Of a stretch of DNA of 64,000 nucleotides, positions 36,062-50,835 are shown one piece after another. This DNA comes from Rhodospirillales bacterium. GTDB taxonomy: Bacteria > Pseudomonadota > Alphaproteobacteria > Rhodospirillales > UBA2165. The position numbers were made by a program, and so were the translations under genes. The stretch spans positions 322,463 through 386,462 of the forward strand of contig CBDBMR010000014.1 in NCBI GenBank assembly GCA_965207535.1, in the 5' to 3' direction. The notes beneath the pieces are model-generated. The model was not told the origin of the DNA and did no database searches. It saw only the letters and a list, made by a program, of their open reading frames with translations. Numbering within the stretch: the first letter of the stretch is position 1; each line of letters starts with the position of its first letter.

Positions 36062-37636
36062 TCATTGGTACCACTTCCAGTCTTTGAGAATTTCGCGCGC
36101 GGCGTTGTGCCCGGGCACGGCGGATACGGCGCCGCCCGGATGTGTCGACGCGCCGCACTGGTACAGATTGCGTACGGGTGAGCGATAGTCGGCGTAACGG
36201 GGTACCGGCCGCATGAAGAACAACTGGTCCAGCGTCAGTTCCCCATGCTGCGAATTTCCCCCCGGCAGGTTGATATCCGCTTCGATGTCCTTCGGCGTGT
36301 AGAGCTTGTAGTCGATCACGCTGTCGGAGAATCCGGGTGCAAATCGGTCCAGCACCGAGAAGGCGTTCTTGATCAATTGCGGCGCCTCGTGATCCCAATT
36401 CGAATTGCGCAATTCGTACGGGGTCACGCCGCCTTGGATGACGACGACGTGCTTGCCGTCAGGCGCCAAGGTCGGGTCCGTATAGCTGGGCACATTCGGG
36501 GAGAGAAACGGCTCGGTCGAGTACCAGCCGAATTTCGCGTCATGGAAGGCCTGTTCCAGGAATTCGGGCGTCGGGCAGATGTGGACATAGGCCGGATATT
36601 CGGTCCCCGTCTTCTCTTTGCTGAAACCCTTGTATTGGGGCAGCCGGTCCACCGCCAAGAGCAGTTTGAATCCCATCCCCCTGGACCTGAAGCCCTTGAC
36701 GTCATCCACGAATTCTTCCGGCAGATGGCTTTCGTCCACCATGTCCAGGAAAGTGCGTTTGACATTTACGTTCGAGATTATCCGGCCGGCGTACAGCTCC
36801 TCGCCGGTCTTTAGGCGCACACCCACGGCCTTTCCATCGCGCACCAGAATTTCATCGACCCACGAATCGCACTGGATCTCCATTCCGTGCGCGGCACCCG
36901 AGGCCGCGATGGCGTCCGCGATGGAACCCATCCCGCCCTTGCAGAAGCTCATGCCGGTTTGCCCAATAAGATGGGTCACCAGGTAGAAGGCTGTCCCGGG
37001 ACTGTAGGGGCCGACATTGCCGCCTATGGTGGCCCAGAACATGAACTTCGCCTTCACCAGATCGTTCTCGAACCAGCGGCTGACATAGTCATGGGCACTC
37101 ATCGAGAGCGCATGCAGCAGGTTGTAGACCTCCTTTTCGGCGTCGCGATAACGCCAGGCGAACCGCGCGGTCTTCCACACCCCCGATAGATCCTTGCGGA
37201 AAGGATTGTGCGGGGTCTCCATCTGCAGCCTGCGCAGAATTTCGATGGTCGACTGGAGGCGCTCGAAGAACTTGGGGTAATTGTCGGCGTCGTGTTTCGA
37301 GAAGCGTGCGATCTGTTCCCGCGTCTTGACCGGATCCTTGGAGAACACGATCCCGTCATCCTCCGTCGGATTGAATACGTTTGGCTGGGGATAATACTCC
37401 AGGCCAAATTTTCTTAGCTCCAACTCCTCTATGACCTTGGGATGCAAGTGACCCATGATGAAAGAGTAGGTCGAGGCACGGAATCCGGGGCTGAACTCTT
37501 CGGTGACACTCGCGCCGCCCACATGAGGCTTTTGTTCCAGCACGAGAATCTTCTTGCCGGCGCGGGATAGATAAGCGCCGCAAGTCAGGCCATTGTGGCC
37601 GCCGCCGATGATTATGGCGTCGTACTTGCGGGTCAT
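36062..37636 (-). CDS. Phytoene-dehydrogenase-like (COG1233) FAD oxidoreductase
   Basis: IIGGGHNGL, GGMGSI, NLYQCGASTHPGGAVS..PGHNAA. Confidence 0.9.
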   Translation of the reverse strand: MTRKYDAIIIGGGHNGLTCGAYLSRAGKKILVLEQKPHVGGASVTEEFSPGFRASTYSFIMGHLHPKVIEELELRKFGLEYYPQPNVFNPTEDDGIVFSKDPVKTREQIARFSKHDADNYPKFFERLQSTIEILRRLQMETPHNPFRKDLSGVWKTARFAWRYRDAEKEVYNLLHALSMSAHDYVSRWFENDLVKAKFMFWATIGGNVGPYSPGTAFYLVTHLIGQTGMSFCKGGMGSIADAIAASGAAHGMEIQCDSWVDEILVRDGKAVGVRLKTGEELYAGRIISNVNVKRTFLDMVDESHLPEEFVDDVKGFRSRGMGFKLLLAVDRLPQYKGFSKEKTGTEYPAYVHICPTPEFLEQAFHDAKFGWYSTEPFLSPNVPSYTDPTLAPDGKHVVVIQGGVTPYELRNSNWDHEAPQLIKNAFSVLDRFAPGFSDSVIDYKLYTPKDIEADINLPGGNSQHGELTLDQLFFMRPVPRYADYRSPVRNLYQCGASTHPGGAVSAVPGHNAAREILKDWKWYQ

Positions 37637-38430
37637 TTGCCCTTCCAAACCGGTTTGCGTTTCTCGATGAAGGCCGCGAGTCCCTCCTGGCGGTCATCGG
37701 AGAACATCAACAGCGCCGAGAGGTCACCGCCTGAGTTAAGTGCCTGCTCGAATGTCTGATAGGGCGCCCTGTCGATCGCCTGTTTGGCGGCCATGATCGC
37801 CAGAGGCGCCGAGGACTCCATCTCGGCGACAATTTCCACCGCCTTTGATACCGCCCCGCCTGCGGGCACCACATGATTGAGAATTCCCAGGTCGAGCGCC
37901 TCGTCCGCGTCCATCCGCCTACCCGTAAATGCCAGTTCCTTGGCCTTGCGCTCCCCGACCGCACGGGCCAAAGACCAAGCGCCGCCCAGAATTGGGAACA
38001 GGCCGAGTTTGGCCTCGGTGATGCCGAAACTCGCGGTTTCGGACCCGACGATGAAGTCACAGCGGAGCGCGACCTCCAACCCGCCTCCGAGGGCATAACC
38101 CTCTACCGCCGCTATCACCGGCTTGGTGTAGTTGACGAAGAAGCGCATGAAGTTGTGCAGTCCGCTTTGGGTATGGCGGAAGCGATACTTGTCGAACGGG
38201 GTCATTTCGCTGGAGGCCGTATTCTTGACGTCTCCGCCTGCACAAAAGGCCGTATCGTCACCGGTCAAAATCACGGCTGTGACGGCGCCGTCGCTCTCCC
38301 AGGTTTCCATTTGCGCCCGCGTCTCGGCGAGCATCCGTTCGGTCAGTGCGTTTCGCGCCTCGGGCCTGGCAAAGCGGATAATTCCCGCATTGCCGATCGT
38401 TTCCGCCCGAATCTCCGATGGGGCGGCCAT
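37633..38430 (-). CDS. Enoyl-CoA hydratase/isomerase
   Basis: AFCAGGD, ALGGGLE, ITEAKLG (both catalytic Glu present). Confidence 0.92.
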   Translation of the reverse strand: MAAPSEIRAETIGNAGIIRFARPEARNALTERMLAETRAQMETWESDGAVTAVILTGDDTAFCAGGDVKNTASSEMTPFDKYRFRHTQSGLHNFMRFFVNYTKPVIAAVEGYALGGGLEVALRCDFIVGSETASFGITEAKLGLFPILGGAWSLARAVGERKAKELAFTGRRMDADEALDLGILNHVVPAGGAVSKAVEIVAEMESSAPLAIMAAKQAIDRAPYQTFEQALNSGGDLSALLMFSDDRQEGLAAFIEKRKPVWKGK

Positions 38431-38434
38431 CCCC

Positions 38435-39106
38435 TCACACCAGCATTTCTATGGCTTGGTCGGCCGTTCTCACGTCGCCGAAGGATTGGTAGAACGAGGT
38501 CAATCCGGCCAGGTGATCGTCGTCGTACCGTGCCGCGTTTGCGTCCTCGACCATCACCACCTTGTAATCGAGCATCATCGCATCACGGGCCGTGGACTCG
38601 CTGCACATGTTGGTCGCCGTGCCCGTCACGATGAGGTTTTCGATACCCATGCCCTGCAAGATTTCGTGCAAATCCGAAGCGCCGACGATGAACGGCGAGA
38701 AGCGTTTCTTGGTGACGATACGGTCTTCGTCCTTGACCTCGAGATCGGGATAAATCTCGTAGCCCTCGTTGCCGGGACTGAGTTTGGTCAGGTGGTTCTG
38801 GCCCTTTGCCTCGGTGAAGAAATATTGGTGGTAGATCTGCCATTGGCTCGGCGCGCCTTCGTTTTCGGCGCACCGCATGATTACCCAGATAACCGGCGCC
38901 CCCTTCTCTCTGCATGCCCCGGCAATCCGATTGATGTTGGGCACGATCGAAATCGCCGTGTCCACCTCGGCCACGTAGAAATTCTGCATGTCGATGACGA
39001 GGAGGGCGGTCTTGCGCGCTTCAAACTCGTCGAATACTTCCAGCTTTCCCCGCTTAGCCATGATCCTTTCGATCACGTAGTCAGGAATCTTCACATCATG
39101 GGGCAT
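38435..39106 (-). CDS. Isochorismatase-family cysteine hydrolase (amidase)
   Basis: LLVIDMQN, VTKKRFS, TGTATNMCSESTARDA (D-K-C triad). Confidence 0.9.
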   Translation of the reverse strand: MPHDVKIPDYVIERIMAKRGKLEVFDEFEARKTALLVIDMQNFYVAEVDTAISIVPNINRIAGACREKGAPVIWVIMRCAENEGAPSQWQIYHQYFFTEAKGQNHLTKLSPGNEGYEIYPDLEVKDEDRIVTKKRFSPFIVGASDLHEILQGMGIENLIVTGTATNMCSESTARDAMMLDYKVVMVEDANAARYDDDHLAGLTSFYQSFGDVRTADQAIEMLV

Positions 39107-39136
39107 GCCCATTTCCTCCCATTTGGCCTTTATTGT

Positions 39137-39156
39137 TGCCCACTTTATCCCACTAG
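39137..39156. promoter_or_regulatory. Repeated 20-bp upstream motif, copy 1
   Basis: TGCCCACTTTATCCCACTAG, identical to 48982-49001. It extends into the palindrome CCCACTAGTGGG (39149-39160). Confidence 0.65.
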
Positions 39157-39202
39157 TGGGTCATTTCAAAATGGTTTTTAGCCGGTGCCGGACGGGAGAA
39201 TT

Positions 39203-39397
39203 TTATTCGTGCCGGTCTAGGAACACCGGGTTGCCGCCGACGCCGTACGCGCCGTCCCGGACCTCGTTTATGGTCACCCTAACCTGCCCGGGTTTCGCAT
39301 CCAGCGTTTCGATCACCGCCTCGGTCATTCGCTTTATCAGGCGGTTTTTCGTCTCCTGGTCGCGGCCCTCGATGATCGTGATGCTTACAATTGCCAT
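39203..39397 (-). CDS. 4-oxalocrotonate tautomerase-like protein with Ala in place of Pro-1
   Basis: MAIVSITIIEGRDQETKNRLIKRMTEAVIETL...VRVTINEV...YGVGG, AAGGA RBS before ATG 39397. Confidence 0.85.
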   Translation of the reverse strand: MAIVSITIIEGRDQETKNRLIKRMTEAVIETLDAKPGQVRVTINEVRDGAYGVGGNPVFLDRHE

Positions 39398-39424
39398 GTT
39401 CGTCCTTCGCAATTAGGTGGTTGC

Positions 39425-40174
39425 TCAGCGGGTGATTCCGCCTCCATCGACGATCAGGCACTGACCGCTGACAAAGTCCGCGTGATCGCTGAGAAAAAAT
39501 GCGGCCGGTCCAATAAGGTCGTCAGGTTGCTGATCGCGCCCCAAGGATCGCCCAGCGGCGATGGTTGCCTTCCGGTCCCCGATGCCCTCGCGGGCCAAGA
39601 CGCCCTCGCTCATGGTCAGGCCGGGGGCGATGGTGTTGACGCGAATGTTCTTTGGCCCAAGTTCGCGGATCAACGAGCGAGTCATCGCCAACACCCCGCC
39701 CTTGGATGCGTCATAGTGGAGCAGACCGGGATATCCGTGGAAGATGCGGTTGGTGGATACCATGACGATTGATCCGCCGCCCGCCCGCTCCATGGCCGGC
39801 ACGGCCGCCCGGGCGCACAACCAGGGCCCCTTGACATTGACCCGCATAACCTCGTCCCAGAGTTCGGGATCGATCTCGTCGTACGCCTCGATCGGCAGGG
39901 CCGAGAAAAGGGCCGCGTTGCAAACCAGCCCATCGACTCCCCCGAAAGCTTCCTCTGTTTCAGCGACCATCCGATTGCAGTCATCGAGACTGGTAACGTC
40001 TGCCTGGATTCCAATCGCCTTGCAGCCATCGGACGCGATCCGCCGAACGGCGTCGGAAGGATCGGCGAGGTCACAGACCGCAACGCTGGCGCCCATCCGG
40101 GCGAAGCCCGAAGCCATCGCGGCGCCGATTCCCTGTGCCGCCCCGGTTATGATTATCCGTTTAGAGTCCAACAT
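39425..40174 (-). CDS. Short-chain dehydrogenase/reductase
   Basis: TGAAQGIG, CNAA, YDASK (YxxxK), NTIAPG. Confidence 0.93.
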   Translation of the reverse strand: MLDSKRIIITGAAQGIGAAMASGFARMGASVAVCDLADPSDAVRRIASDGCKAIGIQADVTSLDDCNRMVAETEEAFGGVDGLVCNAALFSALPIEAYDEIDPELWDEVMRVNVKGPWLCARAAVPAMERAGGGSIVMVSTNRIFHGYPGLLHYDASKGGVLAMTRSLIRELGPKNIRVNTIAPGLTMSEGVLAREGIGDRKATIAAGRSLGRDQQPDDLIGPAAFFLSDHADFVSGQCLIVDGGGITR

Positions 40175-40216
40175 CAGATGCTCTCACCCCTCCCCTCGGA
40201 TCGGCTCCGCGGCAGC

Positions 40217-42289
40217 TTACAGATCCACGACCAGATCGGCCGCCACGAGACGATCCGCCGTCACGAACAGCGGATTGATTTCCAAGGACGGCAGCCGGTC
40301 GGCGGCCTCCGACATCCGCACCAACAATTTCGCCAGGGCATTACGGTTCACCGGTCCGGCGCCACGCCAGCCATCCAGCATGCGCTCCGCCCTTATTTCC
40401 CCGATCATGGCGTGAGCTTCGCCTTCGCCGAATGGCGCCTTGCGATAACTCAGGTCATCAAGCAATTCACACAAAGTTCCACCTGAGCCGAGCATGACAA
40501 GCGGCCCGAAATGCGGATCGCTTCGGGCAGCCAGCAGGACTTCGACGCCGTTGATGTGAGGACACCATGTGACATGGATGTCCGGCCAGTTCCCCGCGTG
40601 TTCTTCCGCCAGTCTCGCCAAATCGCCGTAGGCGGCTTCCACAGCCGCCGGCACCGAGAGGTTGATCCGCACGCCGTCCAATTCGGTCCGGTGTTTCAAC
40701 CCCGCCGCCGTCAGCTTGAGCACTATGGTCTTGTGATCCCCGAGCGCGGATACCGCCTCCTCCGCCGATTTGACCGGCGCGTCGGTCAGTACCTCGATGC
40801 CGGTCTCTCGAAGGATATCGACCACCGCATCCAGACTTTTCGCCTGCACACCCGGAGGAAGAGGCGCCGTGGACGGTTTCTCGAATGACTTCCCGGTTCG
40901 CACCAGCTTGGCGACCGCCTCCGTCATGACGGTCGGATCGTCGAATACGGCGATACCGCTTCTCACCAGATCAGCGCGATCCTCGCTCTCGAGATTTGCC
41001 GCGATGGCGATCAGTTTGTCCGGGTGACCGGCTTGAAACGTCAGCATTTGCGACATGATCCCGTCGCGGGTTCGGGGGACCAGGGGCACATGGCTGATAT
41101 AACCGAGCATCGTTTGTGGATCGCGCTCAAGCCCCCACTTCAGATGACCGCCGGTAATTTCCATGTCGCTCATGGATGGCGCGGAGATGTCGATGGGATT
41201 GCGGTCATTGACGAACGAGTTCGTCTGTTTGAGATCGGCCAGCGCACCCTTGGGATATTCGGGGAGCTCCAGGCCGTTCTTTGCCGCGGCATCCGATATC
41301 ATCACGGCGCCCCCGCCCGAAACCGAGACAGCGGCTATTTCGGGAGAGGCCGGAATAGCCCCGGCGTTGCAAGCGGCGACCAGATCGATCATTTCATTGA
41401 TTGATCCGGCCCGCAAAACGCCAAACTGGCAAAACAAGTCCTCGACAACCCGGTCTTCGACGTAAACCGACGCGGTGTGCCCGGTTGCGGCCTCGCCGCC
41501 CTGGGGAGTGGTCCCAACCTTGAGAACCACCACGGGCTTTCTTGATTGCCGCGCCAGTTCCAGCGCCTGAACCAGCTTCAAACCACGGCTGGCGTCTTCC
41601 ATGTAAACGGCAATCGTCTTCGTCGCGGGATCACCGGCATAGAACGCGATCGCGTCGCAGATATCGATATCGGCCTGGTTTCCGGTGGATATCCAATTGG
41701 CCAGTCCCAACCCGCGGTCGCGCAGTTGCGCAAAAATCTGAATGCCGACCGCGCCGGACTGACTTGCAACGGAGATATCCCCCACCACCGGCCAGCCGTT
41801 GCCCCCGTGATGTTCAGGGGCGCTGGTAAAACTGGCGACAAATCCGGATGCCAATGACATCACACCCATGCAGTTGGGCCCGATCATCCGCATGTCATGG
41901 TCCTGGGCGATCTTCAGCAGCTCGTCCTGCCGGAGCCGTCCCTCGGCGCCGGCCTCCGCAAACTGCGCGCCATAGACGATGGCAATGCTTGCCCCCTTCT
42001 CCCCGGCGGCTATCAAATTTTCGCGCACGAGCGCCGCGGGCACCGCGATCACGGCAATGTCCGGGGCCTCGGGAAGATCGGAAATGCTCCGATAGGCCTC
42101 GATGCCCTGGACGATTTCGTTTTTTGCATTCACCGGGTAGAGTCGGCCCGCATATCGTCGTTCGAGACAGAATTTCAATGCGCGTCCGCCGAATTTCATC
42201 GGATTCGTCGACGCACCGATGATCGCCGCCGATTGCGGACGAAAGCACATCTCCAGCTTTCCGAATTCCGACTTGTCGAGTTGCTGCAT
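40217..42289 (-). CDS. Acetate-CoA ligase (ADP-forming) family acyl-CoA synthetase
   Basis: IIGAS, MIGPNCMG, SQSGA, ISTGNQAD, TGHTAS (phospho-His), C-terminal ATP-grasp with EINP. Confidence 0.9.
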   Translation of the reverse strand: MQQLDKSEFGKLEMCFRPQSAAIIGASTNPMKFGGRALKFCLERRYAGRLYPVNAKNEIVQGIEAYRSISDLPEAPDIAVIAVPAALVRENLIAAGEKGASIAIVYGAQFAEAGAEGRLRQDELLKIAQDHDMRMIGPNCMGVMSLASGFVASFTSAPEHHGGNGWPVVGDISVASQSGAVGIQIFAQLRDRGLGLANWISTGNQADIDICDAIAFYAGDPATKTIAVYMEDASRGLKLVQALELARQSRKPVVVLKVGTTPQGGEAATGHTASVYVEDRVVEDLFCQFGVLRAGSINEMIDLVAACNAGAIPASPEIAAVSVSGGGAVMISDAAAKNGLELPEYPKGALADLKQTNSFVNDRNPIDISAPSMSDMEITGGHLKWGLERDPQTMLGYISHVPLVPRTRDGIMSQMLTFQAGHPDKLIAIAANLESEDRADLVRSGIAVFDDPTVMTEAVAKLVRTGKSFEKPSTAPLPPGVQAKSLDAVVDILRETGIEVLTDAPVKSAEEAVSALGDHKTIVLKLTAAGLKHRTELDGVRINLSVPAAVEAAYGDLARLAEEHAGNWPDIHVTWCPHINGVEVLLAARSDPHFGPLVMLGSGGTLCELLDDLSYRKAPFGEGEAHAMIGEIRAERMLDGWRGAGPVNRNALAKLLVRMSEAADRLPSLEINPLFVTADRLVAADLVVDL

Positions 42290-43711
42290 TCAGCCCTGCC
42301 GCTTCCGGGTGACGGTAAATGTCTCGTTCACGAACCACATCCCGCCATGCTTGACGAGCACCTCGCGCACCACGTCCAGATAGCGCGAGTCCCGGGCCAT
42401 GACCTGTTGCGCCAGCTCCTCCTTCACCTCGACGAAATAGAGCGCGTTGTTCCAGGCGGAAGAGAGGGAGAGCAGTCCTATTTCGTGCTCGCCCAGTGAC
42501 GGCAGGGTGTGCATATCGAACCGGAACAGGGAACGGGCGTCGGTCAGGCCGCTGAACTTGAAGCCGCTTTGCTTGGCACCCAGGGCTTTTCGGAAATCGC
42601 GCAGAATATCGTAGCGGTTTACGAACGGAATCCGCTGTTTCGGCCAGACGCCCCGCACGATTTCATGGGCCGGATCGTTTCCATGCGACTGAATGACGGT
42701 CATCTGCCCGCCCGGCGCCAACCGTTCGACCACGGGTCTCAGAACGTAGTCGATCCTGAACTTCATGGTGTGGCTGTGGAGGTAGGGGTGATTGAGCAGG
42801 CAGTAATCGTACTGCCGAATACCCTCTCCGTGGCTGGGAATGATATCCTTGAGGTTGGACTTCTGGTCCTGTCGGTAAATCGTCACCACGCTCGGCACGG
42901 CGTAGACCGGCTGCGCGTGTTCGCCCTGGTAAACGACCCATTCCTTCGAGAGATCTTCGTAAAGCGCCGCCACCTGCTTCTGGAAGTCGTAGCTGCGGTC
43001 GCCGTCGAGCGCCACGTCCCGCCAGATCAGGTCCTCGGGGCAATCGTCGGACTTCTTCTCCATATCCAGCGCTTCCCAAAGGTACATATTGGTCATGACG
43101 AAAACGCTTAGCGGATGTTCCGCCAGCCGATCCACCAACCGCCCCATCGTATTGCGAAGATCCTCCAGTCCGCGCCCCTTCAAAACGACAAGCACCGGCG
43201 TATCGGGCAAAGTGGCATTCAAGGCGCGCAGGGTTCGGGTCAACGTGATCCCATTGTCCATGGGCGTGTAGAACAAACGGATGCCCGGCGAGCCCGGCTG
43301 CAAATTCTTGAGTTCCTCGGCAACGCGGTCCGCCAGAACCCAAGACTCGTTCGTCGTGCCGGCAAACACATGGAAACGTTGGCGCTGCTCATGAAAGGCG
43401 AAACTGCCGGGCGTGCGGATCGAGGTTTCCTGGCTGATGAGCTCGGCCATGGTCTCCGCATTGGACTGGGCCTTCTTTCGGCGCGGACGGCCGCGGAGTT
43501 CGATCTCGCCCCGGTCGGCCCGCTCGATGAATTCCGCGATTCGCTCGGCGGTCCGGGACTCGATGCGGCTGCCGTTCGAAATACGGCCGACAAGCTTGCC
43601 GTCATTGACCGCAAGACGTCCGAACGTCGATTCCGCGATCTTGTGCTTCCTGCAAAATGCTCGAATCGCAGCGGCCAGCTTTTCCGGTTTGTCGAGAAGA
43701 TGAAGAACCAT
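42290..43711 (-). CDS. Hypothetical protein: N-terminal Cro-like HTH fused to a degenerate methyltransferase-like fold (putative regulator)
   Basis: N-terminal AFCRKHKIAESTFGRLAVNDGKLVGRISNG looks HTH-like. The ~370-aa C-terminal alpha/beta domain has no intact glycine-rich SAM motif (reads LFYTPMDNG). Confidence 0.55.
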   Translation of the reverse strand: MVLHLLDKPEKLAAAIRAFCRKHKIAESTFGRLAVNDGKLVGRISNGSRIESRTAERIAEFIERADRGEIELRGRPRRKKAQSNAETMAELISQETSIRTPGSFAFHEQRQRFHVFAGTTNESWVLADRVAEELKNLQPGSPGIRLFYTPMDNGITLTRTLRALNATLPDTPVLVVLKGRGLEDLRNTMGRLVDRLAEHPLSVFVMTNMYLWEALDMEKKSDDCPEDLIWRDVALDGDRSYDFQKQVAALYEDLSKEWVVYQGEHAQPVYAVPSVVTIYRQDQKSNLKDIIPSHGEGIRQYDYCLLNHPYLHSHTMKFRIDYVLRPVVERLAPGGQMTVIQSHGNDPAHEIVRGVWPKQRIPFVNRYDILRDFRKALGAKQSGFKFSGLTDARSLFRFDMHTLPSLGEHEIGLLSLSSAWNNALYFVEVKEELAQQVMARDSRYLDVVREVLVKHGGMWFVNETFTVTRKRQG

Positions 43712-43768
43712 GTGGCTTTCGCGTGATGTCCGACGGTAATGGCGTACGGAGGCAGATGACCCGGATCG

Positions 43769-44245
43769 TCAATCGCCGATCAGGAATGTGCCCTCGATCT
43801 CGACCGGCTGGCGATCCACCAGCCCATCCACGCCGACCGAAGAGCGGGCATGGCAACCTATTTCCGGGCCGAACGCCTCATAGAACAAATCGCTGGCCCC
43901 GTTCAACACTATATTCTGCCGCTCGAAATCCGGATGAGCGTTGATCATTCCGAGAATTTTTACCACCCGCTTCACCCGATCCAAATCGCCCACATGATGC
44001 CTGACCGTGGCGATCATCTTTATCGCCAAGGCGCGTGCAACTTCATACCCCTCATCCTCGGTGATCTCCAAACCGACCTTTCCGCGCCGCTTCACGTTTC
44101 CTTCCTCCAGGAGCGCGGCACCGTGGCCGGATACGTAGAGCATCTTGTCCACAAGCACGGCGCTGGTTCGGTTGGGACTGGGCAGAACGAGCGGCTCCGG
44201 CAAGGTTATTCCCATATCCTGCAGGCGAGCCTCGATTTTCGACAT
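43769..44245 (-). CDS. RidA/YjgF family protein
   Basis: LYVSGHG, RVVKILGMIN, VLNGASDL, HARSSVG, PVEIE. Confidence 0.9.
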   Translation of the reverse strand: MSKIEARLQDMGITLPEPLVLPSPNRTSAVLVDKMLYVSGHGAALLEEGNVKRRGKVGLEITEDEGYEVARALAIKMIATVRHHVGDLDRVKRVVKILGMINAHPDFERQNIVLNGASDLFYEAFGPEIGCHARSSVGVDGLVDRQPVEIEGTFLIGD

Positions 44246-44327
44246 GATGCTGCCCTTGACGCAGTGGATGAAGGTCAAACGAAATCATTTCGTTTGGCAG
44301 GAACCGTGGAAATTTCACTTGCAGTAT

Positions 44328-44348
44328 TGCCCATTATCTGCCCATTAG
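44328..44348. promoter_or_regulatory. Variant of the CCCAYT direct-repeat motif
   Basis: TGCCCATTATCTGCCCATTAG between the divergent ridA and ligM-like genes. Confidence 0.5.
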
Positions 44349-44404
44349 TAAACAGAAAAGGCTCACGCCTACATGTTCACCGCCTCTGGAACGGGAGAAG
44401 GTCA

Positions 44405-45769
44405 ATGGCAATTGAGACACTCGAAGACAAGATCAACTCGATAGGCAATCCGGTGGATATGCTCCGCAACGCCGCCGCCGGGCCGTACCAGTTTCCCATC
44501 ACCTCCGAGTTCAGCAATTGGCGCGACGAGCAGGAGGCCTGGCGCAACGGCGCGGTCCTGTTCGACCAGTCGTTCCACATGACCGATCTATATGTCGAGG
44601 GTCCGGATACCAGGAAGTTGTGCGAATACCTGGCGGTCAATTCAATGGCCAACTGGCAGCGCGATCTCGCCAAGCAATTCGTTCACTGCACGCCGGATGG
44701 TTATGTGGTTGGCGACGCGATCATATTTATCCTCGAGGAAGACAAGGCCAATATCGTCAACAAACCCAGCAATGCCAACTGGGTGACGTATCACGCCGAG
44801 AAAGAGGGGTTTGACGTCTCCTTCGATCTCGACATGCGCGCACTGGACAACAGGGGACGGCGCAAGGGATACCGGTTTGAAGTCCAGGGTCCCGAAGCCT
44901 GGTCGCTCCTGGAAAAACTGAACGGCGGGCCGATCGAGCAGTTCAAATTCTTCCGGATGGGCGAAATCAACGTGGCCGGCCGGCAGGTACGGGCACTGCG
45001 GCACGGCATGGCCGGCGCAGTCGGCTTGGAACTCTTTGGCCCGTTCGACGACTACGACCTCATCCGCGACGCCATCCTCGAGGCGGGTCAGGAGTTCGGC
45101 ATCAGGGCCGCCGGCTCCAAGACCTATTCGACCGTCGCGCATGAATCCGGATGGTTCCCTTCGCCGCTTCCCGCGATCTATTCCAGCGGCGATCTTGCCG
45201 ATTACCGGCGGTGGCTGCCCGCGACAAGCTTCGAGGCCAACCTGTCATTGGGCGGCTCGTTGGTCAGCGACAACGTGGAGGACTATTACCTCACGCCCTA
45301 CGACCTGGGCTACGGCCATATCGTCAAGTTCGATCATGACTTCATCGGGCGCGATGCGCTGGAGGCGAAAAAGGATCAGCCGCACAGGCACAAGGTGACG
45401 CTTCGGTGGAACAAGGACGATGTGCTGAAGGTGTTTGCTTCCATGTTCAATGAAGGCGACCGGTACAAGTTCCTCGACATACCCGCATCTCACTACGCGA
45501 CCTGCCCCTATGACCTTGTGACCAGGGACGGCAAGCCGGTCGGATTGTCCCACTATCCGGTCTACACATCCAATGTCGCCGGCTGGATTTCCCTGGCCCT
45601 GCTGGATGAGGAAGCGGCCGCCCCCGGCACGGAGGTCTCGTTGACGTGGGGCGAACCGGACGGCGGGACCATGAAACCGGCCGTCGAACGTCACGTTCAG
45701 ACCGAAATTGCCTGCACGGTGGAGCCCTGTCCGATTTCAGTCACGGCGCGGGAAACGTACAGAAAGTAG
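44405..45769 (+). CDS. ligM: THF-dependent aminomethyltransferase-family demethylase (LigM/DesA-like)
   Basis: NPVDMLRN...SEFSNWRDEQEAWRNGAVLFDQSFHM, YRFEVQGP, RHGMAG..GLELFGP, TPYDLGYG. Start ATG 44405. Confidence 0.82.
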   Translation: MAIETLEDKINSIGNPVDMLRNAAAGPYQFPITSEFSNWRDEQEAWRNGAVLFDQSFHMTDLYVEGPDTRKLCEYLAVNSMANWQRDLAKQFVHCTPDGYVVGDAIIFILEEDKANIVNKPSNANWVTYHAEKEGFDVSFDLDMRALDNRGRRKGYRFEVQGPEAWSLLEKLNGGPIEQFKFFRMGEINVAGRQVRALRHGMAGAVGLELFGPFDDYDLIRDAILEAGQEFGIRAAGSKTYSTVAHESGWFPSPLPAIYSSGDLADYRRWLPATSFEANLSLGGSLVSDNVEDYYLTPYDLGYGHIVKFDHDFIGRDALEAKKDQPHRHKVTLRWNKDDVLKVFASMFNEGDRYKFLDIPASHYATCPYDLVTRDGKPVGLSHYPVYTSNVAGWISLALLDEEAAAPGTEVSLTWGEPDGGTMKPAVERHVQTEIACTVEPCPISVTARETYRK

Positions 45770-45779
45770 GGACCGCACC

Positions 45780-47381
45780 TTAACGGTTTTCATCCTCGAG
45801 AATCATATCGCTGGCTTTCTCGGCGATCATCAGCACGGCTGCATTGGTGTTTCCCGATACGATCGACGGCATAACCGACGCATCCACCACTCGCAGCCCG
45901 GCAACACCTCTCAGCCGGCAACGGGGGTCCAAGGGCGCGTCGTCCGCGTCCCCCATGGCTACAGTCCCGACCGGATGAAATATCGTCGTCACCCGTTCCT
46001 TGATCGCCTCCAGCAACTCATCGTCGCCGGCATTTGCCAATTCCGGCTCGGGCCAGACCTCCTCTTCGATCACATCCGACACCGGCGCCAGCCGGCAGAT
46101 CTCCCGCGACCGTTTAAGGCCGTCGACAATCGCTTTCCGATCTCGGTCCGCGGAAAGATAGTTGGCGGTGATGGCAGGCGCCGTCATGGGGTCCGGGCTT
46201 CTTAAACGCACCGTCCCCCGGCTTTCCGGACGTATGGGGCAGATGGAAACCGAGAATCCTGGCCATGGGTGAAAACCCTCGGCCGGATTGTCGCTGCTCC
46301 AAGGCAAGACATGGAACTGAACATCCGGGCGCGCGAGTTCGCCGGAGCTGCGAAGGAAACAAAATACCGGGCCCGCTCCCATGGTCAGCGGACCGCGACG
46401 CCGCAATAGGTATTCGAACCCCATCCCCGCTTTGCCGAAATTGCTGTTCAGACGGCCGTTCAAGGTCGGGATCGATACCCGATAGACATTGTGGAACTTC
46501 AAGTGATCCTGCAGGCCCCGGCCGATACCGGGTGCGTCCAGTACCGTCCGGATTTCGTGAGCCTCCAGATGGTCGGCTTCGCCGATGCCGGAAAGCATCA
46601 ACAAGTGTGGCGAGCCGATGGTACCCGCCGACAAAAGAATTTCCCTGTTGGCGGAAATAATCTCGCCGGCGCCATCCGGACGGCGCAACTCCACGCCCCT
46701 TGCGCGGTTGCCCGCCGTGACGATGCGGGTGACCATCGCGTCCGTCATGACCCTCAAGTTCGGGCGGCCCCGGACCGGATCGAGATAGCCGTGGGCCGCC
46801 GAGACGCGCCGTCCCTTCCAGGTGGTCGTCTGGTAGTAGCCCGTGCCTTCCTGATCGGCACCGTTGCAATCCGGGTTCGCCGGCAGTCCATAGTTCACAG
46901 CGGCTTCACGGAAAAGGTCCGTAATCCGGAATTGGGCCCGGCCGAGCGAAACGCCGATCCGGCCGTCGCCGCCCCGCCATTGGTCATCCCCCTGCTCGTT
47001 CCGTTCGGAACGCTTGAAGTACGGCAGGACGTTCCCGTAATGCCATCCCTCGGCGGCCTGCCCCCAATAATCGAAGTCAGCCTTATGTCCGCGGACGTGG
47101 ATCAATCCGTTGATCGCGCTCGAACCGCCGAGCCCCCGGCCGCGCGGCCAATCCAGCACACGGCCGTTTAGGTGCGGCTCCGGTTCGGTCGTCAGGCACC
47201 AATCGTAGACCGGATCGCCGATGGTTTTGAAATAGCCGATCGGCATCTTGACCCAGGGGCTGCGATTGCGCCCGCCGGCTTCAATCAGCAGCACCCGGCG
47301 ACGGGGATCGCCGCTCAGCCGGTTGGCAAGGACGCAGCCCGCGGTGCCGGCACCGACGACAATGTAATCCCAGTCATCCAT
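45780..47381 (-). CDS. GMC family oxidoreductase (choline dehydrogenase-like)
   Basis: DYIVVGAGTAG, PRGRGLGGSSAING, LQDH, FHPVGT, GNTNA. Confidence 0.92.
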   Translation of the reverse strand: MDDWDYIVVGAGTAGCVLANRLSGDPRRRVLLIEAGGRNRSPWVKMPIGYFKTIGDPVYDWCLTTEPEPHLNGRVLDWPRGRGLGGSSAINGLIHVRGHKADFDYWGQAAEGWHYGNVLPYFKRSERNEQGDDQWRGGDGRIGVSLGRAQFRITDLFREAAVNYGLPANPDCNGADQEGTGYYQTTTWKGRRVSAAHGYLDPVRGRPNLRVMTDAMVTRIVTAGNRARGVELRRPDGAGEIISANREILLSAGTIGSPHLLMLSGIGEADHLEAHEIRTVLDAPGIGRGLQDHLKFHNVYRVSIPTLNGRLNSNFGKAGMGFEYLLRRRGPLTMGAGPVFCFLRSSGELARPDVQFHVLPWSSDNPAEGFHPWPGFSVSICPIRPESRGTVRLRSPDPMTAPAITANYLSADRDRKAIVDGLKRSREICRLAPVSDVIEEEVWPEPELANAGDDELLEAIKERVTTIFHPVGTVAMGDADDAPLDPRCRLRGVAGLRVVDASVMPSIVSGNTNAAVLMIAEKASDMILEDENR

Positions 47382-47395
47382 CAACCACGCAGACG

Positions 47396-47965
47396 TCAGA
47401 TAAAGTGAGGAATTTCCCTTTTGGTCGGCCCAACCGAATAACGCGGGTTCGGTCTTCGGCCGTCCCATCGATCCGCCGTGACGTCCTCCAGAACGACCTG
47501 ATGGTCAAGCGAACGGCCGAGCCTGCCATCCGATAGCGTCGCCCTGTCTCCCGGCACCGAGTTCTCACAGATCACCAGGAAGCCGCGCGGAAGCACCTCA
47601 CCCGAACCGCCGTTCTCCGAGACCAACTCGGATGGCCGGCCAAGCTCGGCGAGTGAATTTCCATTGAGCGCGACGGCATCGAGGTGGCCGCTCAGATTCT
47701 TCAGGCGCCACGCCTTTCGCGCCAGAACGATGCTCCCGGTACTCAACTGCACCACCGGTGAGATGAGTGCGCCGCCGCCCAAAGCGGTGAGCGCATACGT
47801 TGAACTTGCCTGCCCGCCCGGCTCCGCCTGGTGATAGAGCTCGGTTGTCAGAACCGTCAGGGGCATCGGCGTGCCGCCGATAAATATCCGGTCAATCACG
47901 ATGTCCGGCGTGGTGATGTTCCCTTCCGGTCCCTCTACGTGCGGCTTGAATAGAAACAGCGACAT
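47396..47965 (-). CDS. Hypothetical protein
   Basis: 189-aa ORF with GGAG RBS, tightly co-oriented between the beta-propeller and GMC genes. Confidence 0.7.
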   Translation of the reverse strand: MSLFLFKPHVEGPEGNITTPDIVIDRIFIGGTPMPLTVLTTELYHQAEPGGQASSTYALTALGGGALISPVVQLSTGSIVLARKAWRLKNLSGHLDAVALNGNSLAELGRPSELVSENGGSGEVLPRGFLVICENSVPGDRATLSDGRLGRSLDHQVVLEDVTADRWDGRRPNPRYSVGPTKREIPHFI

Positions 47966-47977
47966 TGAAACGTCTCC

Positions 47978-48949
47978 TTACACGGGCGCCCAGGTGATCA
48001 TGCGGATTTCGCCGAGTTCCCGATCCGTCTTTGTCCAGCTTTCGCCGCCGTCCGTGCTTTTGAAAATTTGTCCAAAGATCGTTGCCGCAAAAAGAAGGGA
48101 GGTGTCGGCGGCGTTGGTCCCGATGGACCACAAGGTGCTGTTGGGTTCATGGGACAACGCGCACTCACGCCAGGTTTCCCCGAAATCGCGGCTAATGAGA
48201 AACTGCCCTGCCTCGCCGGAAGGCCTGTCGCCAACCGAAGCAATCACGATAGGAGAGTTCGCCGCCGGCTGTTTGATGCTTCGGAAGTAGTCCCATTTCG
48301 CCAACGGGATACTCAACTGCTCCCACGTCACGCCGTCATCCCGCGATCTGTGGAGCCCATCTTCGGTCGAACAGAGGATTGTTCGTTCGTCACCCTCGTC
48401 GAGGAATGCCAGATCGTGGGTATCATTGTCGTGCAGTCCCTCGATCATCAGCCGCCACGTTTTGCCGCGGTCGTCGGAACGGATTATCCCGTCGATTTCG
48501 ACGGTGATCCAGATCGTATCCTCGTGCTTCGGGTCGAAATGAACCGAGGTCACGCGGGATGTATTGATAAACCAGCACTCGGTTGAAGCGTCCAGATTGG
48601 CCCGCGTCCAGGTCTGTCCGTCATCCTCGGAGATGAAAATTTCACCCGGCCGCGTGCCGCAGGCGATGAAACCCGGATCGTTTGGCGCGCGCGCGATCTG
48701 CAGAATGTGAAGCGAATCCATGGGAGACGGAATGTAGTCGAACCGGCCCTTGTCCTCGGTAAACCGGTAAAGGCCCTGATCGGTCCCCGCCAGCACCTCT
48801 CCGGGTCGAGCAGGGTGGGTGTTGACCGACCAGCATCTCGCTTCGTTGTAAAATCCGCCGGTCGGCGTGGGCAGCCGGTTCCAGCTTGTGCCCTCGTCTT
48901 CGCTGATCCAAACGCTTTGCATCGTGGCCGCATAGGCTTTGTATTTCAC
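47978..48949 (-). CDS. BNR/Asp-box repeat beta-propeller protein
   Basis: Repeated S-x-D-x-G-x-T/S-W boxes: SEDEGTSW, SEDDGQTW, SDDRGKTW, SRDDGVTW, SRDFGETW, STDGGESW. No signal peptide. Start GTG 48949. Confidence 0.85.
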   Translation of the reverse strand: MKYKAYAATMQSVWISEDEGTSWNRLPTPTGGFYNEARCWSVNTHPARPGEVLAGTDQGLYRFTEDKGRFDYIPSPMDSLHILQIARAPNDPGFIACGTRPGEIFISEDDGQTWTRANLDASTECWFINTSRVTSVHFDPKHEDTIWITVEIDGIIRSDDRGKTWRLMIEGLHDNDTHDLAFLDEGDERTILCSTEDGLHRSRDDGVTWEQLSIPLAKWDYFRSIKQPAANSPIVIASVGDRPSGEAGQFLISRDFGETWRECALSHEPNSTLWSIGTNAADTSLLFAATIFGQIFKSTDGGESWTKTDRELGEIRMITWAPV

Positions 48950-48981
48950 AACGCGCTCCCCCGGGCAGTCCAAATCCTCGC

Positions 48982-49001
48982 TGCCCACTTTATCCCACTA
49001 G
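48982..49001. promoter_or_regulatory. Repeated 20-bp upstream motif, copy 2
   Basis: TGCCCACTTTATCCCACTAG, identical to 39137-39156. Confidence 0.65.
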
Positions 49002-49150
49002 ATGAAGTATGCAATCCATGTTATCAGTGATCCGGCCGATTATAATCCAGTTGCGGCTGCGGCATCCAACCACTGGATAACCGGGTGCCGCGGTTCGCTC
49101 GGCCGTCAAGAGGGTCGGATATCGCCCCCGAGCCAAACCAGGACAGCGGA

Positions 49151-49954
49151 ATGATGCAGGTAACATTGCTTGGGACTGGCCTTCCCTTCCCCAACCCGAA
49201 ACGCCGGGGTCCCGGCTATCTCATCCGATGCGGAGAAACCAATTGCCTGGTCGACTGCGGATCCGGCGCGGTCCACCGGTTGGTCGAAGCCGGGAAGATG
49301 GCGCACGACATCGACCACGTTTTCATCACCCACTTGCACTCCGATCACTTCATCGACCTCGGGCACTTCACAATCTGTCATTGGATATATGGAGATGGCC
49401 GCCCTTGGAACCTTTACGGCCCGGAGGGGATAGACGTCATATTCCAGAACCTCCTAGATGCGCTCCGGTCCGATCTCGAACTCCGCAACAAAATCAGAAA
49501 ATCGCCGAAGCCGTTGCCCCAAATCGTGGTTCATGAACTCCGGCAAGGAGAAGCGCTTGAGGAAAACGGGCTGACGGTCAGCGCGTTTGATGTCGAACAC
49601 CAACCTCTTGATCAGCCATTCGGGTATCGATTTGCCACGCGGGACAAAACCGTGATCTTCTCGGGCGACACCTGCCCGTCCGAAAATCTGATCCGTCACA
49701 GCCAGGGGGCGGACGTTCTAATTCACGAATGCGTCGAGTACGACAAGTGGAAGGCGCGGGACATCGATCACGCCCATACCCCTCATGCACATACCTCGCC
49801 GGAACGGCTTGCTTTGTTGGCAAGGGACGCCAATGTGGGACTTCTGGTCACCACCCACATGATGGCGAACTCCGTCCCCCGCGAATTGATGGAAATCATC
49901 CGCCGGGACTATCGGAAGCCGGTGGCCATCGGCGAAGATCTAATGACCGTTTGA
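49151..49954 (+). CDS. MBL-fold metallo-hydrolase (RNase Z/arylsulfatase-like)
   Basis: LLGTG, LVDCG, THLHSDH (HxHxDH), FSGDT, AHTS, TTHM. Confidence 0.9.
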   Translation: MMQVTLLGTGLPFPNPKRRGPGYLIRCGETNCLVDCGSGAVHRLVEAGKMAHDIDHVFITHLHSDHFIDLGHFTICHWIYGDGRPWNLYGPEGIDVIFQNLLDALRSDLELRNKIRKSPKPLPQIVVHELRQGEALEENGLTVSAFDVEHQPLDQPFGYRFATRDKTVIFSGDTCPSENLIRHSQGADVLIHECVEYDKWKARDIDHAHTPHAHTSPERLALLARDANVGLLVTTHMMANSVPRELMEIIRRDYRKPVAIGEDLMTV

Positions 49955-49968
49955 CGGCGGATCGCTCT

Positions 49969-50835
49969 ATGACGGATTTACGCACCTCTTCCTGGTCTCT
50001 GGAGGCCACACTGCCGAAGCCGGCGGAGATCGAGGCTGTGGCGTCGGTCATCGAGGAGGGAACGGAGGTTTTCCTCAGCACACTTCCGCACGTCTCGTTG
50101 GACCAGCAGATCGAAACGGCGCGGATCGTCCGGTCAAACGGGCTCGAGCCGGTTCTCCACATCGCCACTCGGTACTTCGCGACACGGACGGAAATGGTGG
50201 GATACCTCGCGCGCGCCAACCAGGAGGCGGAGGTCTCCAGAGTACTCGTCATCGGCGGCGACCTGCATCCGCCCCGCGGCGAATTCGATTCCGCACTGGC
50301 ATTCATCAAGAGCGGATTGGCTTCCGACTACGGCATCAAGAGGATTGGCGTCGCCGGATATCCGGAAGGACATCCGAAAATTCCTGATGCCACGCTTTGG
50401 ACCGAAATGGGGGAGAAATTGGCTTCCGCCCGGGCGCAAGGATTGGATTTCGAGATCGTGACCCAGTTCTGCTTTAGTCCCGACGCCATCGTGGACTGGC
50501 TCGACGACACCTGGGAGCGCTGGCCCGGGACGCATGTGCGTCTCGGCTTCGCGGGACCGGCCTCCGCAAAGTCGATTCTGCGTTACGCATTAAGGTGCGG
50601 CGTGAAGACCCCGAAAAGCGGACTGGGTCACAAGCTTACGGCGGCCTCTCGATTGGCAAAGAATCACGACCCGGCGCCGTCAATTGTGGCGGTCGGGGAT
50701 GCCATTCGGCAAAAATCAGGCTCGGCGTCCGTTCATTTGTTCTCCTTCGGCGGAGTTGAAAACACGGTGCGCTGGATGAACCGCGGTCTCGGGTCATCAC
50801 GCTCGGCGGACCGCGATCCCCAGGCCTACGCTTAA
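49969..50835 (+). CDS. metF: Methylenetetrahydrofolate reductase-like protein (short alphaproteobacterial type)
   Basis: SLE, PVLHIA, VIGGD, GVAGYPEGHP, IVTQFCF, GFAGPAS...LRYALRCGV. Confidence 0.8.
   Translation: MTDLRTSSWSLEATLPKPAEIEAVASVIEEGTEVFLSTLPHVSLDQQIETARIVRSNGLEPVLHIATRYFATRTEMVGYLARANQEAEVSRVLVIGGDLHPPRGEFDSALAFIKSGLASDYGIKRIGVAGYPEGHPKIPDATLWTEMGEKLASARAQGLDFEIVTQFCFSPDAIVDWLDDTWERWPGTHVRLGFAGPASAKSILRYALRCGVKTPKSGLGHKLTAASRLAKNHDPAPSIVAVGDAIRQKSGSASVHLFSFGGVENTVRWMNRGLGSSRSADRDPQAYA

Follow-up and report, generated by a model that had tools for sequence, protein, structure and literature searches.

A candidate one-component regulator with a methyltransferase-like fold and its predicted CCCAYT operators in a putative catabolic gene block of a Rhodospirillales bacterium

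We analysed a stretch of 64,000 nucleotides (nt) from a Rhodospirillales bacterium (lineage UBA2165; contig CBDBMR010000014.1, positions 322,463 to 386,462), called the window throughout, and concentrated on the genes around an open reading frame (ORF) of 473 amino acids (aa) at 42290-43711 on the minus strand. An earlier note, made from the sequence alone, had proposed this ORF as a one-component regulator that acts on CCCAYT boxes and controls about 15 genes. Our comparison of related genomes agrees with that proposal: the gene and the motif occur together, no other regulator is conserved nearby, and the product of the ORF, which we call X473, is probably the factor that binds the CCCAY arrays. 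X473, a candidate on the grounds of its AlphaFold model, of Foldseek comparisons and of the co-occurrence of family and motif, would be a one-component transcription factor of an uncharacterised family; we found no description of this family in the literature.

Repeat boxes in the promoter regions of the block

The 20-mer TGCCCACTTTATCCCACTAG occurs as an exact copy at 39137-39156 and again at 48982-49001, both on the plus strand and with 9845 bp between the copies, much as the earlier note had reported (9.8 kb). It is the sole 100%-identical repeat of at least 20 nt between 33 and 52 kb, and its flanks diverge straight outside the edges of the 20-mer. No further copy was found in the window at up to 3 mismatches, and 0 of 100 shuffled sequences gave a match. 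A variant, read here as TGCCCATTATCTGCCCATTAG, lies at 44328-44348 (plus strand) between a RidA-like gene on the minus strand and a LigM-like gene on the plus strand (ATG 44405), the divergent promoter region to which it had already been assigned. All three sites are direct repeats of CCCAYT about one helical turn apart, as had been claimed, with a period of 10 bp in both identical copies and of 11 bp in the variant. The pattern CCCAYT-N3-6-CCCAYT has 4 matches in the 64 kb, all on the plus strand and all between 39.1 and 49.0 kb. When scored with a half-site weight matrix from related genomes, the three closest relatives left out, the three sites reach 28.6-30.9 bits (28.6 for site 1, 30.9 for site 3) and are the only strong matches in the window; shuffled windows gave a mean of 0.2 matches above 14 bits and a maximum of 23.2 bits.

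The three sites, which we regard as predicted operators, face five transcription units. Site 1 (39137-39160, plus strand) consists of TGCCCACTTTATCCCACTAG and an inverted third half-site and lies upstream of a minus-strand operon for an isochorismatase-family hydrolase, an enoyl-coenzyme A (CoA) hydratase and a flavin adenine dinucleotide (FAD) oxidoreductase, possibly with a TctA gene. Site 2, the second exact 20-mer (48982-49001, plus strand), is in the divergent promoter region of a BNR-propeller gene and a metallo-beta-lactamase (MBL)-fold hydrolase gene, and site 3, TGCCCATTATCTGCCCATTAG (44328-44348, plus strand), in that of the RidA-like and LigM-like genes. Since sites 2 and 3 stand in divergent promoter regions, a pair of transcription units may depend on each of them. 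At site 1, the second half-site joins the inverted third one in a perfect 12-bp palindrome, CCCACTAGTGGG, at 39149-39160, which is not present at sites 2 and 3; a similar CCCACTAATGGG is found at some orthologous isochorismatase-promoter sites (L004, L019).

The two identical copies had been placed 30-50 bp upstream of the first gene of their operons, and this stood for one of them. Copy 2 overlaps GTG 48988, the start of the longest BNR ORF, but GTG 48949, preceded by GGGGGAG and 33 nt from the copy, is more likely to be the start. Copy 1 is closer than stated, as its end is 25 nt from ATG 39112, with 31 nt to a second ATG at 39106. A weak fourth direct repeat, TGCCCATTTCCTCCCATTTG (39106-39125, plus strand; 17.2 bits), is spaced 31 bp, or three helical turns, from site 1. 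Whether it belongs with the operators is doubtful, and we downgraded it for its score of 17 bits, for its position over the start codon and ribosome-binding site of the isochorismatase gene, and for its pattern of conservation, as it is kept in relatives at 93-97% identity but not at the orthologous promoters of more distant ones.

Co-occurrence of gene and motif across genomes

The 473-aa protein has more than 1,500 matches in a 90%-identity collection, and a 50%-identity library holds 1,067 representatives at E<=1e-3, of which 292 pass E<=1e-10 and 52 pass E<=1e-30. A scan of genomes returned 80 loci, for each of which about 21 kb were covered. Three sponge-associated metagenome-assembled genomes (MAGs) labelled 'Rhodospirillales bacterium' (L001, L002, L029) are 94-96% identical to the window. 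The marine group to which they belong (L001-L029) further comprises Paracoccaceae, Hoeflea, Rhizobiaceae and other MAGs (56-74% identity) and two gammaproteobacterial MAGs (43-44%), and synteny is kept in most of its loci. Twenty-six of the 29 syntenic marine loci carry CCCAYT-N4/5-CCCAYT, with 66 strict sites. Of these, 55 lie upstream of an orthologue of a block gene at a distance of at most 150 nt: 22 at the LigM-like/RidA-like pair, 16 at the isochorismatase gene, 9 at X473 itself and the rest at the BNR gene. The orthologous site-3 sequence, CTGCCCATTTTCTGCCCACTAGTAAAG, was found in 22 marine loci, and orthologues of site 1 precede the isochorismatase gene in 16. The marine consensus reads cTGCCCAyTwTsnkCCCACTAg, in which the A after the second half-site is invariant, and the sites at orthologous promoters are conserved across genera, whereas their flanks have diverged. 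An extra box is located about 20-60 nt upstream of the homologue, in the gap between the RidA-like gene and the regulator, in L003, L004, L005, L017, L019, L023 and L025 (e.g. GTCCCACTTTCGTCCCACTAG). It is predicted to be the regulator's own operator in those relatives; the window is without it and would rely on site 3.

The soil and freshwater group (L030-L080: Pseudolabrys, Hyphomicrobiales and Burkholderiales; 37-40% identity) has another gene context, and yet a half-site array stands directly upstream of the homologue, with the layout RTGGGC-N5/6-CCCAY-N7-CCCAY-N7/8-RTGGGC-N5/6-TTGTGGTTGAC. The TTGTGGTTGAC anchor is present in 42 of the 51 soil loci, mostly together with the half-site array. 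Among isolates, Pseudolabrys sp. Root1462 has a homologue. At least three half-site matches fall between -220 and -20 of the homologue in 44 of 50 soil loci, as against 1.1% of 4,067 background windows.

We also searched a metagenome collection with the generic pattern TGCCCAYTWTNNNCCCACTAG, that is, blind to the gene. Among the 54 stretches obtained, 23 have cluster genes beside the motif and 14 of these 23 include the homologue; many of the metagenome contigs are only 1-3 kb long. The other 31 stretches represent about 22 unrelated contexts of varied G+C, roughly one third lie inside long ORFs, and the family profile revealed no hidden homologue in their six-frame translations. Two of the unrelated contexts were viewed, the upstream region of an insertion sequence (IS) transposase and an AraC neighbourhood, and both were taken as background. 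The 21-mer TGCCCACTTTTTGCCCACTAG (L084 1262-1282, L101, L124) has identical flanks in these soil metagenomes, about 90 nt upstream of an IS-type transposase (rve/HTH_32), and is probably part of an IS end, unrelated to the regulon. The earlier note had asked of its own proposal whether the motif might be spread over unrelated promoters or might part company with the gene. On both counts the proposal stands: in the window there is no strong match besides the three sites, the 23 metagenome stretches lie at the cluster, and motif and gene co-occur down to 37% identity in different gene contexts.

It is hardly credible, given these distributions, that the 20-mers arose as a chance repeat or are left over from a mobile or repetitive element and play no part in regulation. 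The same 21-mer pattern does occur alone in unrelated metagenome contexts, for instance upstream of the transposase in L084, L101 and L124. None of the 100 shuffles gave any match, however, the identity within the window is confined to 20 bp in promoter regions, and the sites at orthologous promoters have outlasted the divergence of their flanks. Very improbable, too, is a role of the boxes in RNA, as a 5'-untranslated-region element or the site of an RNA-binding protein, or as promoter elements for an alternative sigma factor. Such a role would suit the marine boxes, which are close to start codons and always point the same way at the RidA-like, isochorismatase, BNR and X473 genes, but the LigM-like gene and the whole soil clade show the reverse orientation, with the soil array preceding a -35-like box. 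An Rfam scan of the whole 64-kb window matched no RNA family, and direct plus inverted half-sites with a helical period of 10-12 bp are typical of protein-DNA recognition.

The question of a competing DNA-binding protein was approached through the neighbouring genes. Between 24 and 64 kb of the window we detected no Pfam-recognisable regulator; the earlier note had called the 473-aa ORF the only regulator-like gene in the block. The block's small unannotated ORFs (189, 181, 103, 185 and 359 aa) were rechecked as hidden regulators and yielded only an insignificant touch to GntR (E 0.087, 51930-52475). The only classical regulators in the annotated part of the window, and the nearest ones, are a TetR gene (22875-23549, plus strand) and a MarR gene (23551-24069, minus strand), adjacent and convergent, between a TRAP transporter (DctQ/DctM) and a TctC/TctB/TctA set. 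This pair was rejected as the cognate factor, for it is 15 kb away, beside other transporters and outside the synteny of related loci. In the distant soil clade, no classical regulator is conserved near the homologues, and the only broadly conserved neighbour is a methylenetetrahydrofolate reductase (MTHFR)-like gene directly downstream (34 of 43 loci). MetE-like genes occur in 18 loci (40 copies), and protocatechuate dioxygenase, thiolase and short-chain dehydrogenase/reductase (SDR) genes are less frequent. One isolate locus, Pseudolabrys L078, has a GntR/FCD gene beside a LigM-like gene.

Domains and fold of the 473-aa protein

X473 has no match in Pfam, NCBIfam or the PDB sequences. Its AlphaFold model (38 homologues; predicted local distance difference test, pLDDT, 85) comprises a domain of helix-turn-helix (HTH) type at aa 1-66 (nt 43514-43711), a low-confidence basic linker at aa 67-104 (pLDDT <50 at aa 77-83 and 91-104) and an alpha/beta domain of methyltransferase fold at aa 105-473. 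The N-terminal domain modelled alone reaches a pLDDT of 91, with helices at 9-23, 27-35, 40-45 and 52-66. Nearly all of its best 50 Foldseek matches in the PDB are lambda-repressor-like DNA-binding domains, including HipB, CUT, POU, C.AhdI, SinR, P22 c2 and lambda cI (root-mean-square deviation 1.7-2.5 Å over 52-59 residues; template modelling score, TM, 0.5-0.6). The predicted structure is thus consistent with the Cro-like HTH that had been read from the sequence. This segment is the most conserved part of the family (38 aligned sequences, down to 37% identity), and C20, A26, T29, G31, R32, N36, D37, G38, K39, R43 and G47 are invariant in all 38, a pattern that fits the conserved half-site. 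Residues 71-78 of the linker, LRGRPRRK (window 43478-43501), run on to K79 and hold an AT-hook-like GRP core amid basic residues. G74, R75 and R78 are nearly invariant in the family, though the most distant soil clade lacks the arm.

For the alpha/beta domain, Foldseek returned 72 matches at E<=1e-3, and all of the best 50 listed are class I methyltransferase-fold proteins, in line with the large methyltransferase-like domain claimed before. The best match is histamine N-methyltransferase (2AOW/1JQE; E ~1e-7, probability 1.0, TM 0.54-0.60 on the target). This enzyme and other small-molecule class I enzymes (1JQE, 2AOW, OxaG, TmtA) are the best structural likenesses of the modelled domain, from which X473 differs in having about 10% identity and neither the glycine-rich loop nor the acidic residue after strand 2. 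It also has extra insertions relative to class I methyltransferases, and only about 60% of the target is superposed. When the window protein and 9 homologues of all clades were compared with the Methyltransf_* models of Pfam, none was significant (best, Methyltransf_23, E 0.17).

Graded decay of the cofactor site

Alignments show that the S-adenosylmethionine (SAM) motif has decayed to different degrees in different clades. The motifs read F-D-A-G-x-G-D-G, G-K-E and A-S-Q-P-Y-R in soil-clade fusions and in stand-alone homologues of the C-terminal domain. Intermediate clades show F-D-x-x-L-G-x-G, mostly with K-E, and in the marine clade, to which the window protein belongs, we find F-Y-(T/A/S)-P-M-D-N-G, K-G-(R/W)-G and L-N-H-P-Y-L. 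Motif I, FDAGxGDG in the first of these sets, is thereby FYTPMDNG in X473, and the change extends through the marine clade, which bears out the decayed SAM-binding loop of the earlier note. The acidic residue after strand 2 is glycine in the window protein and the marine clade, whereas it is kept (K-E) in the others; the equivalence of this position was taken from the alignment and the secondary structure. The graded series across clades suggests that the 473-aa family most probably descends from a SAM-binding module. As the marine clade has lost the SAM-binding signatures, its C-terminal domain is most likely a pseudo-enzyme sensor and not an active methyltransferase. The stand-alone homologues (P0126, P0129, P0132, P0136, P0142, P0187 and P0207), which have 363-417 aa, 23-35% identity and no HTH, look like an uncharacterised putative methyltransferase family that seems to be the source of the regulator.

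One might argue from the same data that the protein is a pathway enzyme of methyltransferase-like type, or a bifunctional enzyme-regulator in the manner of BirA, PutA or an ArsR-methyltransferase fusion; were it a pure enzyme, an unlinked factor would have to read the boxes. The class I fold, the retention of FDAGxGDG, GKE and ASQPYR in stand-alone homologues and soil-clade fusions, the high sequence conservation and the constant company of one-carbon enzymes (type-4 MTHFR, MetE-like) all speak for an enzyme, and an ArsR-methyltransferase fusion has been reported with both activities (PMC10190100). We nevertheless consider this unlikely. The window protein, like its whole marine clade, has lost motif I and the acidic residue of strand 2, no Pfam methyltransferase model matches any clade, and no alternative regulator is conserved. 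A pure enzyme, moreover, would leave unexplained both the invariant HTH-like domain and the boxes that follow the gene into another genomic context.

A possible mode of regulation

In the regulator that we propose, the N-terminal lambda-repressor-like HTH would read the CCCAYT half-sites, the basic RGRPRRKK arm behind it may contact the A/T-rich bases between and after them, and the long flexible linker may let the Cro-like domain read direct as well as inverted half-sites. The three operators, each with two direct half-sites 10-11 bp apart, would control five transcription units with 14-16 genes. Site 3 precedes the operon that encodes the regulator and therefore probably also drives RidA-X473-CoA ligase-SDR-tautomerase, which would amount to autoregulation. 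The likeliest mode is repression, relieved by a small molecule that would bind the C-terminal domain. SAM, S-adenosylhomocysteine (SAH) or methyl-tetrahydrofolate (methyl-THF) is a plausible ligand for the soil clade; for the marine clade, an intermediate of the pathway is the more plausible one.

Repression is favoured by the distance of the sites from start codons (25-85 nt) and by site 1, which covers the spacer and the -10 of a sigma-70-like promoter, TTGAAA-N16-TAAAGT (39142-39169, minus strand; a consensus match only, with 1 found against 0.3 expected), the only promoter-like match among the sites; the soil array adjoins a -35-like TTGAC. Promoter and terminator scans at sites 2 and 3 found nothing. 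The same protein and sites could serve a ligand-dependent activator instead, which is possible but in our view rather improbable. The soil half-site array ends at the conserved TTGTGGTTGAC, the TTGAC of which resembles a -35 in a position typical of class I/II activators, and the missing sigma-70-like promoter at sites 2 and 3 recalls the weak core promoters that often need activation. An array over the -35 is also compatible with autorepression, however, and an activator agrees poorly with site 1, which overlaps the spacer and -10, and with marine sites that are so near to the start codons.

Several points weigh against a repressor of this kind, or against a regulator altogether. The HTH assignment comes from a predicted structure, with N-terminal Foldseek E-values of about 1 because the domain is small. 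Pfam HTH models do not match the full 473-aa protein, and faint touches were limited to CUT, in 3 of 25 N-terminal sequences (best E 0.0034), and HTH_26, in 1 of them (E 0.15). An N-terminal profile run against the PDB sequences gave noise only (SptP, E 0.27). With sequence profiles so faint, the assignment is one at the level of the fold. Lambda-repressor-like domains usually bind palindromes as symmetric dimers, and the half-sites here are direct (marine) or mixed direct and inverted (soil), a geometry that such a domain leaves unexplained. Conservation of the whole protein is 60-70% across genera, more typical of enzymes than of regulators, and the soil-clade members with an intact SAM motif could be active enzymes. 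The case for repression is built on one consensus promoter match and on start-codon distances, and further regulon members or a competing regulator may lie beyond the approximately 21 kb covered per genome.

Genes of the block and the likely substrate

Five transcription units were defined with the help of Pfam and NCBIfam, with site 3 between units A and D, site 1 ahead of B, and site 2 between C and E. Unit A (minus strand), the regulator's operon, begins with the YjgF/RidA-like gene (43769-44278; Pfam PF14588, 4e-13; synteny RidA-X473-CoA ligase), followed by X473. Next comes a nucleoside diphosphate (NDP)-forming acyl-CoA synthetase of CoA_binding_2, Succ_CoA_lig and ATP-grasp_5 domains by Pfam and NCBIfam (40217-42289), the start of which abuts the stop codon of the 473-aa ORF. 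An SDR (39425-40174; Pfam) and, as last gene, a 64-aa member of the 4-oxalocrotonate-tautomerase family (39203-39397; PF01361, 6.6e-15) complete the unit. Unit B (minus strand) holds the isochorismatase-family hydrolase (38435-39112; Pfam and NCBIfam), an enoyl-CoA hydratase/isomerase (37633-38430; Pfam) and a COG1233-like FAD oxidoreductase of the phytoene-desaturase/amine-oxidase family (36062-37648; Pfam and NCBIfam). Its possible tail is a TctA-family transporter subunit (33998-36013, minus strand), which is syntenic only in the closest relatives (L029).

Unit C (minus strand) consists of a BNR/Asp-box beta-propeller protein (47978-48988; probable start GTG 48949), a conserved 189-aa protein that always follows the BNR gene and has no assigned family (47396-47965; synteny), and a choline-dehydrogenase-like GMC oxidoreductase (45780-47468; Pfam and NCBIfam). 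Unit D (plus strand) is the GcvT-fold demethylase gene, a tetrahydrofolate (THF)-dependent aryl O-demethylase of the LigM/DesA family (44405-45769; NCBIfam DesA and LigM, PDB LigM 5x1i). Unit E (plus strand) contains the MBL-fold hydrolase (49085-49954; domain annotation) and an MTHFR of type 4, that is, S6MTHFR-like and CH3-THF-oxidising (49729-50835; PDB 7XG9; true start probably near 49950). The longest ORFs overlap at 47396-47468 (189-aa ORF with GMC) and at 49729-49954 (MBL with MTHFR). As the domain alignments begin at residue 34 of the GMC protein and residue 77 of the MTHFR, the true starts of both are probably downstream of those listed.

The demethylase is a clear member of the LigM/DesA family, with a full-length match to the LigM structure 5x1i (4.9e-147). 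Its scores are below both curated NCBIfam equivalog cut-offs (DesA, 6e-180 and 598.6 bits, cut-off 800; LigM, 1.5e-171 and 571.4 bits, cut-off 580), and a substrate is not assignable. The MTHFR of the window matches S6MTHFR (7XG9) at 2.7e-47 and the canonical 1V93/3APT at 5.6e-6, and the MTHFR-like neighbour in the soil locus L078 behaves alike (7XG9 5.2e-56 versus 1.2e-7 canonical). 7XG9 is S6MTHFR; type-4 MTHFR oxidises CH3-THF and pairs with THF-dependent demethylases, and its signature residues are Leu48, Pro49, Arg78, Phe215, Cys219, Pro268 and Phe269 (PMC11868366). In a pairwise alignment, the window MTHFR keeps Leu48, Pro49, Cys219 and Phe269, has Tyr for Phe215 and Ser for Pro268, and aligns a Tyr with Arg78, with an Arg at position 77.

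The regulon looks like a catabolic route for an O-methylated acid that is handled as a CoA thioester. The NDP-forming CoA synthetase presumably has the same architecture as the feruloyl-CoA synthetase FerA of Sphingobium. An aldehyde dehydrogenase gene lies between the CoA ligase and SDR genes in the two relatives checked, L010 (13444-14862) and L004 (13385-14953). Most other marine relatives, in which the gap between these two genes has the same size, presumably carry it as well, while at this place it is missing in the window and its closest relatives. By analogy, the CoA ligase, the hydratase and the relatives' aldehyde dehydrogenase resemble hydroxycinnamate-to-vanillate routes. The methylated N-containing substrate suggested in the earlier note is unlikely. 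Its 'amidase' is the isochorismatase-family hydrolase, of a generic kind, which has weak, sub-threshold similarity to RutB and biuret amidohydrolase, and neither this protein nor the RidA-like one specifies nitrogen chemistry. The LigM/DesA-type O-demethylase and the type-4 MTHFR make an O-methylated aromatic or CoA-activated acid more likely than an N-methyl compound.

Farther along the window, a MetE-like (Meth_synt_2) gene is found at 58416-59552 on the plus strand. MetE-like paralogues, often in several copies, lie downstream of the regulator-MTHFR pair in soil loci (e.g. L076 12435-13658, L078 14923-16035), and such genes may be the methyl-THF-consuming branch of the same module. An aromatic-ring hydroxylase (FAD_binding_3, 54319-55962), an Amidohydro_2 gene of the LigW-like decarboxylase family (61090-62226) and a TRAP solute-binding protein gene (59862-60947), all downstream of the block, fit an aromatic-acid catabolic island and are without a CCCAYT box.

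Comparison with known regulators

The reuse of an enzyme fold as a sensing or bifunctional module is a known principle among regulators, with MocR/GabR (GntR HTH and aminotransferase fold), NrtR (Nudix fold), BirA and PutA as examples. Catalytic motifs have decayed in some of these lineages, and the likeness to the 473-aa protein is one of analogy only, as their folds and families are unrelated to it. Residues 1-66 are comparable to the Cro/C1 (XRE) regulators HipB, SinR, C.AhdI and P22 c2 in fold, small size, N-terminal position and predicted autoregulation. Unlike them, the 473-aa family has no sequence-profile membership, direct-repeat half-sites, an AT-hook-like arm and an enzyme-fold domain of 370 aa.

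Nearest to X473 among known systems are SahR and the related ArsR^M. SahR, in its original description, reportedly carries a methyltransferase-like C-terminal domain behind an N-terminal HTH. It belongs to the ArsR family, responds to SAH and regulates ahcY, metK, metF, metH and the gene that encodes it; its operator is a palindrome of 20 bp (PMC4239095). ArsR^M of Brevundimonas sp. M20, an ArsR-methyltransferase fusion with the same order of domains, comes from a metRFHH operon, and it binds the promoter of its own gene (PMC10190100). With these precedents, the principle of an HTH joined to a methyltransferase-type sensor next to an MTHFR gene is already known, and the architecture that the earlier note called non-canonical is not unprecedented. 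The 473-aa family would share with both proteins the autoregulation, which we deduce from site positions, and the ties to methyl-THF enzymes (metF, metH/metE). In the window, the MBL-MTHFR unit is faced by site 2; in the soil clade, the array precedes the X473-MTHFR pair, and an intact SAM motif is kept beside MTHFR and MetE-like genes. The differences are as marked. The DNA-binding domain is lambda-repressor-like and not an ArsR winged helix (no Pfam HTH_5/HTH_20 match), the C-terminal domain matches no Pfam methyltransferase model, and the operators are direct repeats (marine) or arrays of 4-5 CCCAY half-sites with a period of 10-12 bp (soil) instead of a 20-bp palindrome. The partner would be a catabolic type-4 MTHFR, the marine SAM motifs are lost, and the putative regulon is a 15-gene catabolic cluster. 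The loss of SAM/SAH-binding signatures argues against a SAH response in the marine clade. We compare SahR by its architecture and claim no homology of the sensor domains.

THF-dependent vanillate/syringate O-demethylation is regulated by DesR, a MarR protein, in Sphingobium sp. SYK-6 (PMC6888825) and by Atu1419, a GntR/FCD protein, in Agrobacterium fabrum (PMC7797058). Their targets are ligM-type demethylase genes and metF-type genes within clusters for aromatic catabolism, as proposed for X473. Their protein families and operators are unrelated to those described here, and the 473-aa family would be a third, independent solution. What is new, then, is the family itself, absent from Pfam and NCBIfam, its class of DNA-binding domain and its operator, together with the link to catabolic type-4 MTHFR and LigM-type demethylases and the stepwise loss of cofactor motifs.

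Significance

Methoxylated aromatics enter bacterial metabolism through THF-dependent O-demethylation, by LigM/DesA and type-4 MTHFR, a step that matters for lignin valorisation and for the turnover of marine dissolved organic matter. To our knowledge, only for a few model strains has its regulation been described, with regulators of MarR and GntR type. The operator motif ties an unannotated family to demethylation genes, and its conservation spans sponge symbionts and Paracoccaceae as well as soil Hyphomicrobiales and Burkholderiales. It offers an annotation for more than 1,000 'hypothetical proteins', and the candidate regulator-operator pair is a possible biosensor part. With SahR as the first, we propose the family as the second, independent example of a transcription factor that senses with a methyltransferase fold, in which the stepwise decay of the cofactor motifs across clades makes the evolution of a pseudo-enzyme sensor directly testable.

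One might speculate further and join all parts into one picture, which we hold as tentative and, taken whole, not as the probable outcome. The proteins would form an unrecognised and widespread transcription-factor family of marine and soil Proteobacteria, born by the fusion of a Cro-like HTH to an uncharacterised SAM-binding enzyme module. Its ancestral soil members would couple SAM/SAH or methyl-THF status to the expression of type-4 MTHFR, which would dispose of the methyl groups from THF-dependent O-demethylases. In the clade of marine bacteria and sponge symbionts, the enzyme module would have turned into a pseudo-enzyme sensor for a catabolic intermediate, and the regulon would have grown to a 15-gene pathway. 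If this holds, THF-dependent demethylation outside the sphingomonads would have its general master switch in these proteins, which would also illustrate, within a single family, the decay from enzyme to sensor.

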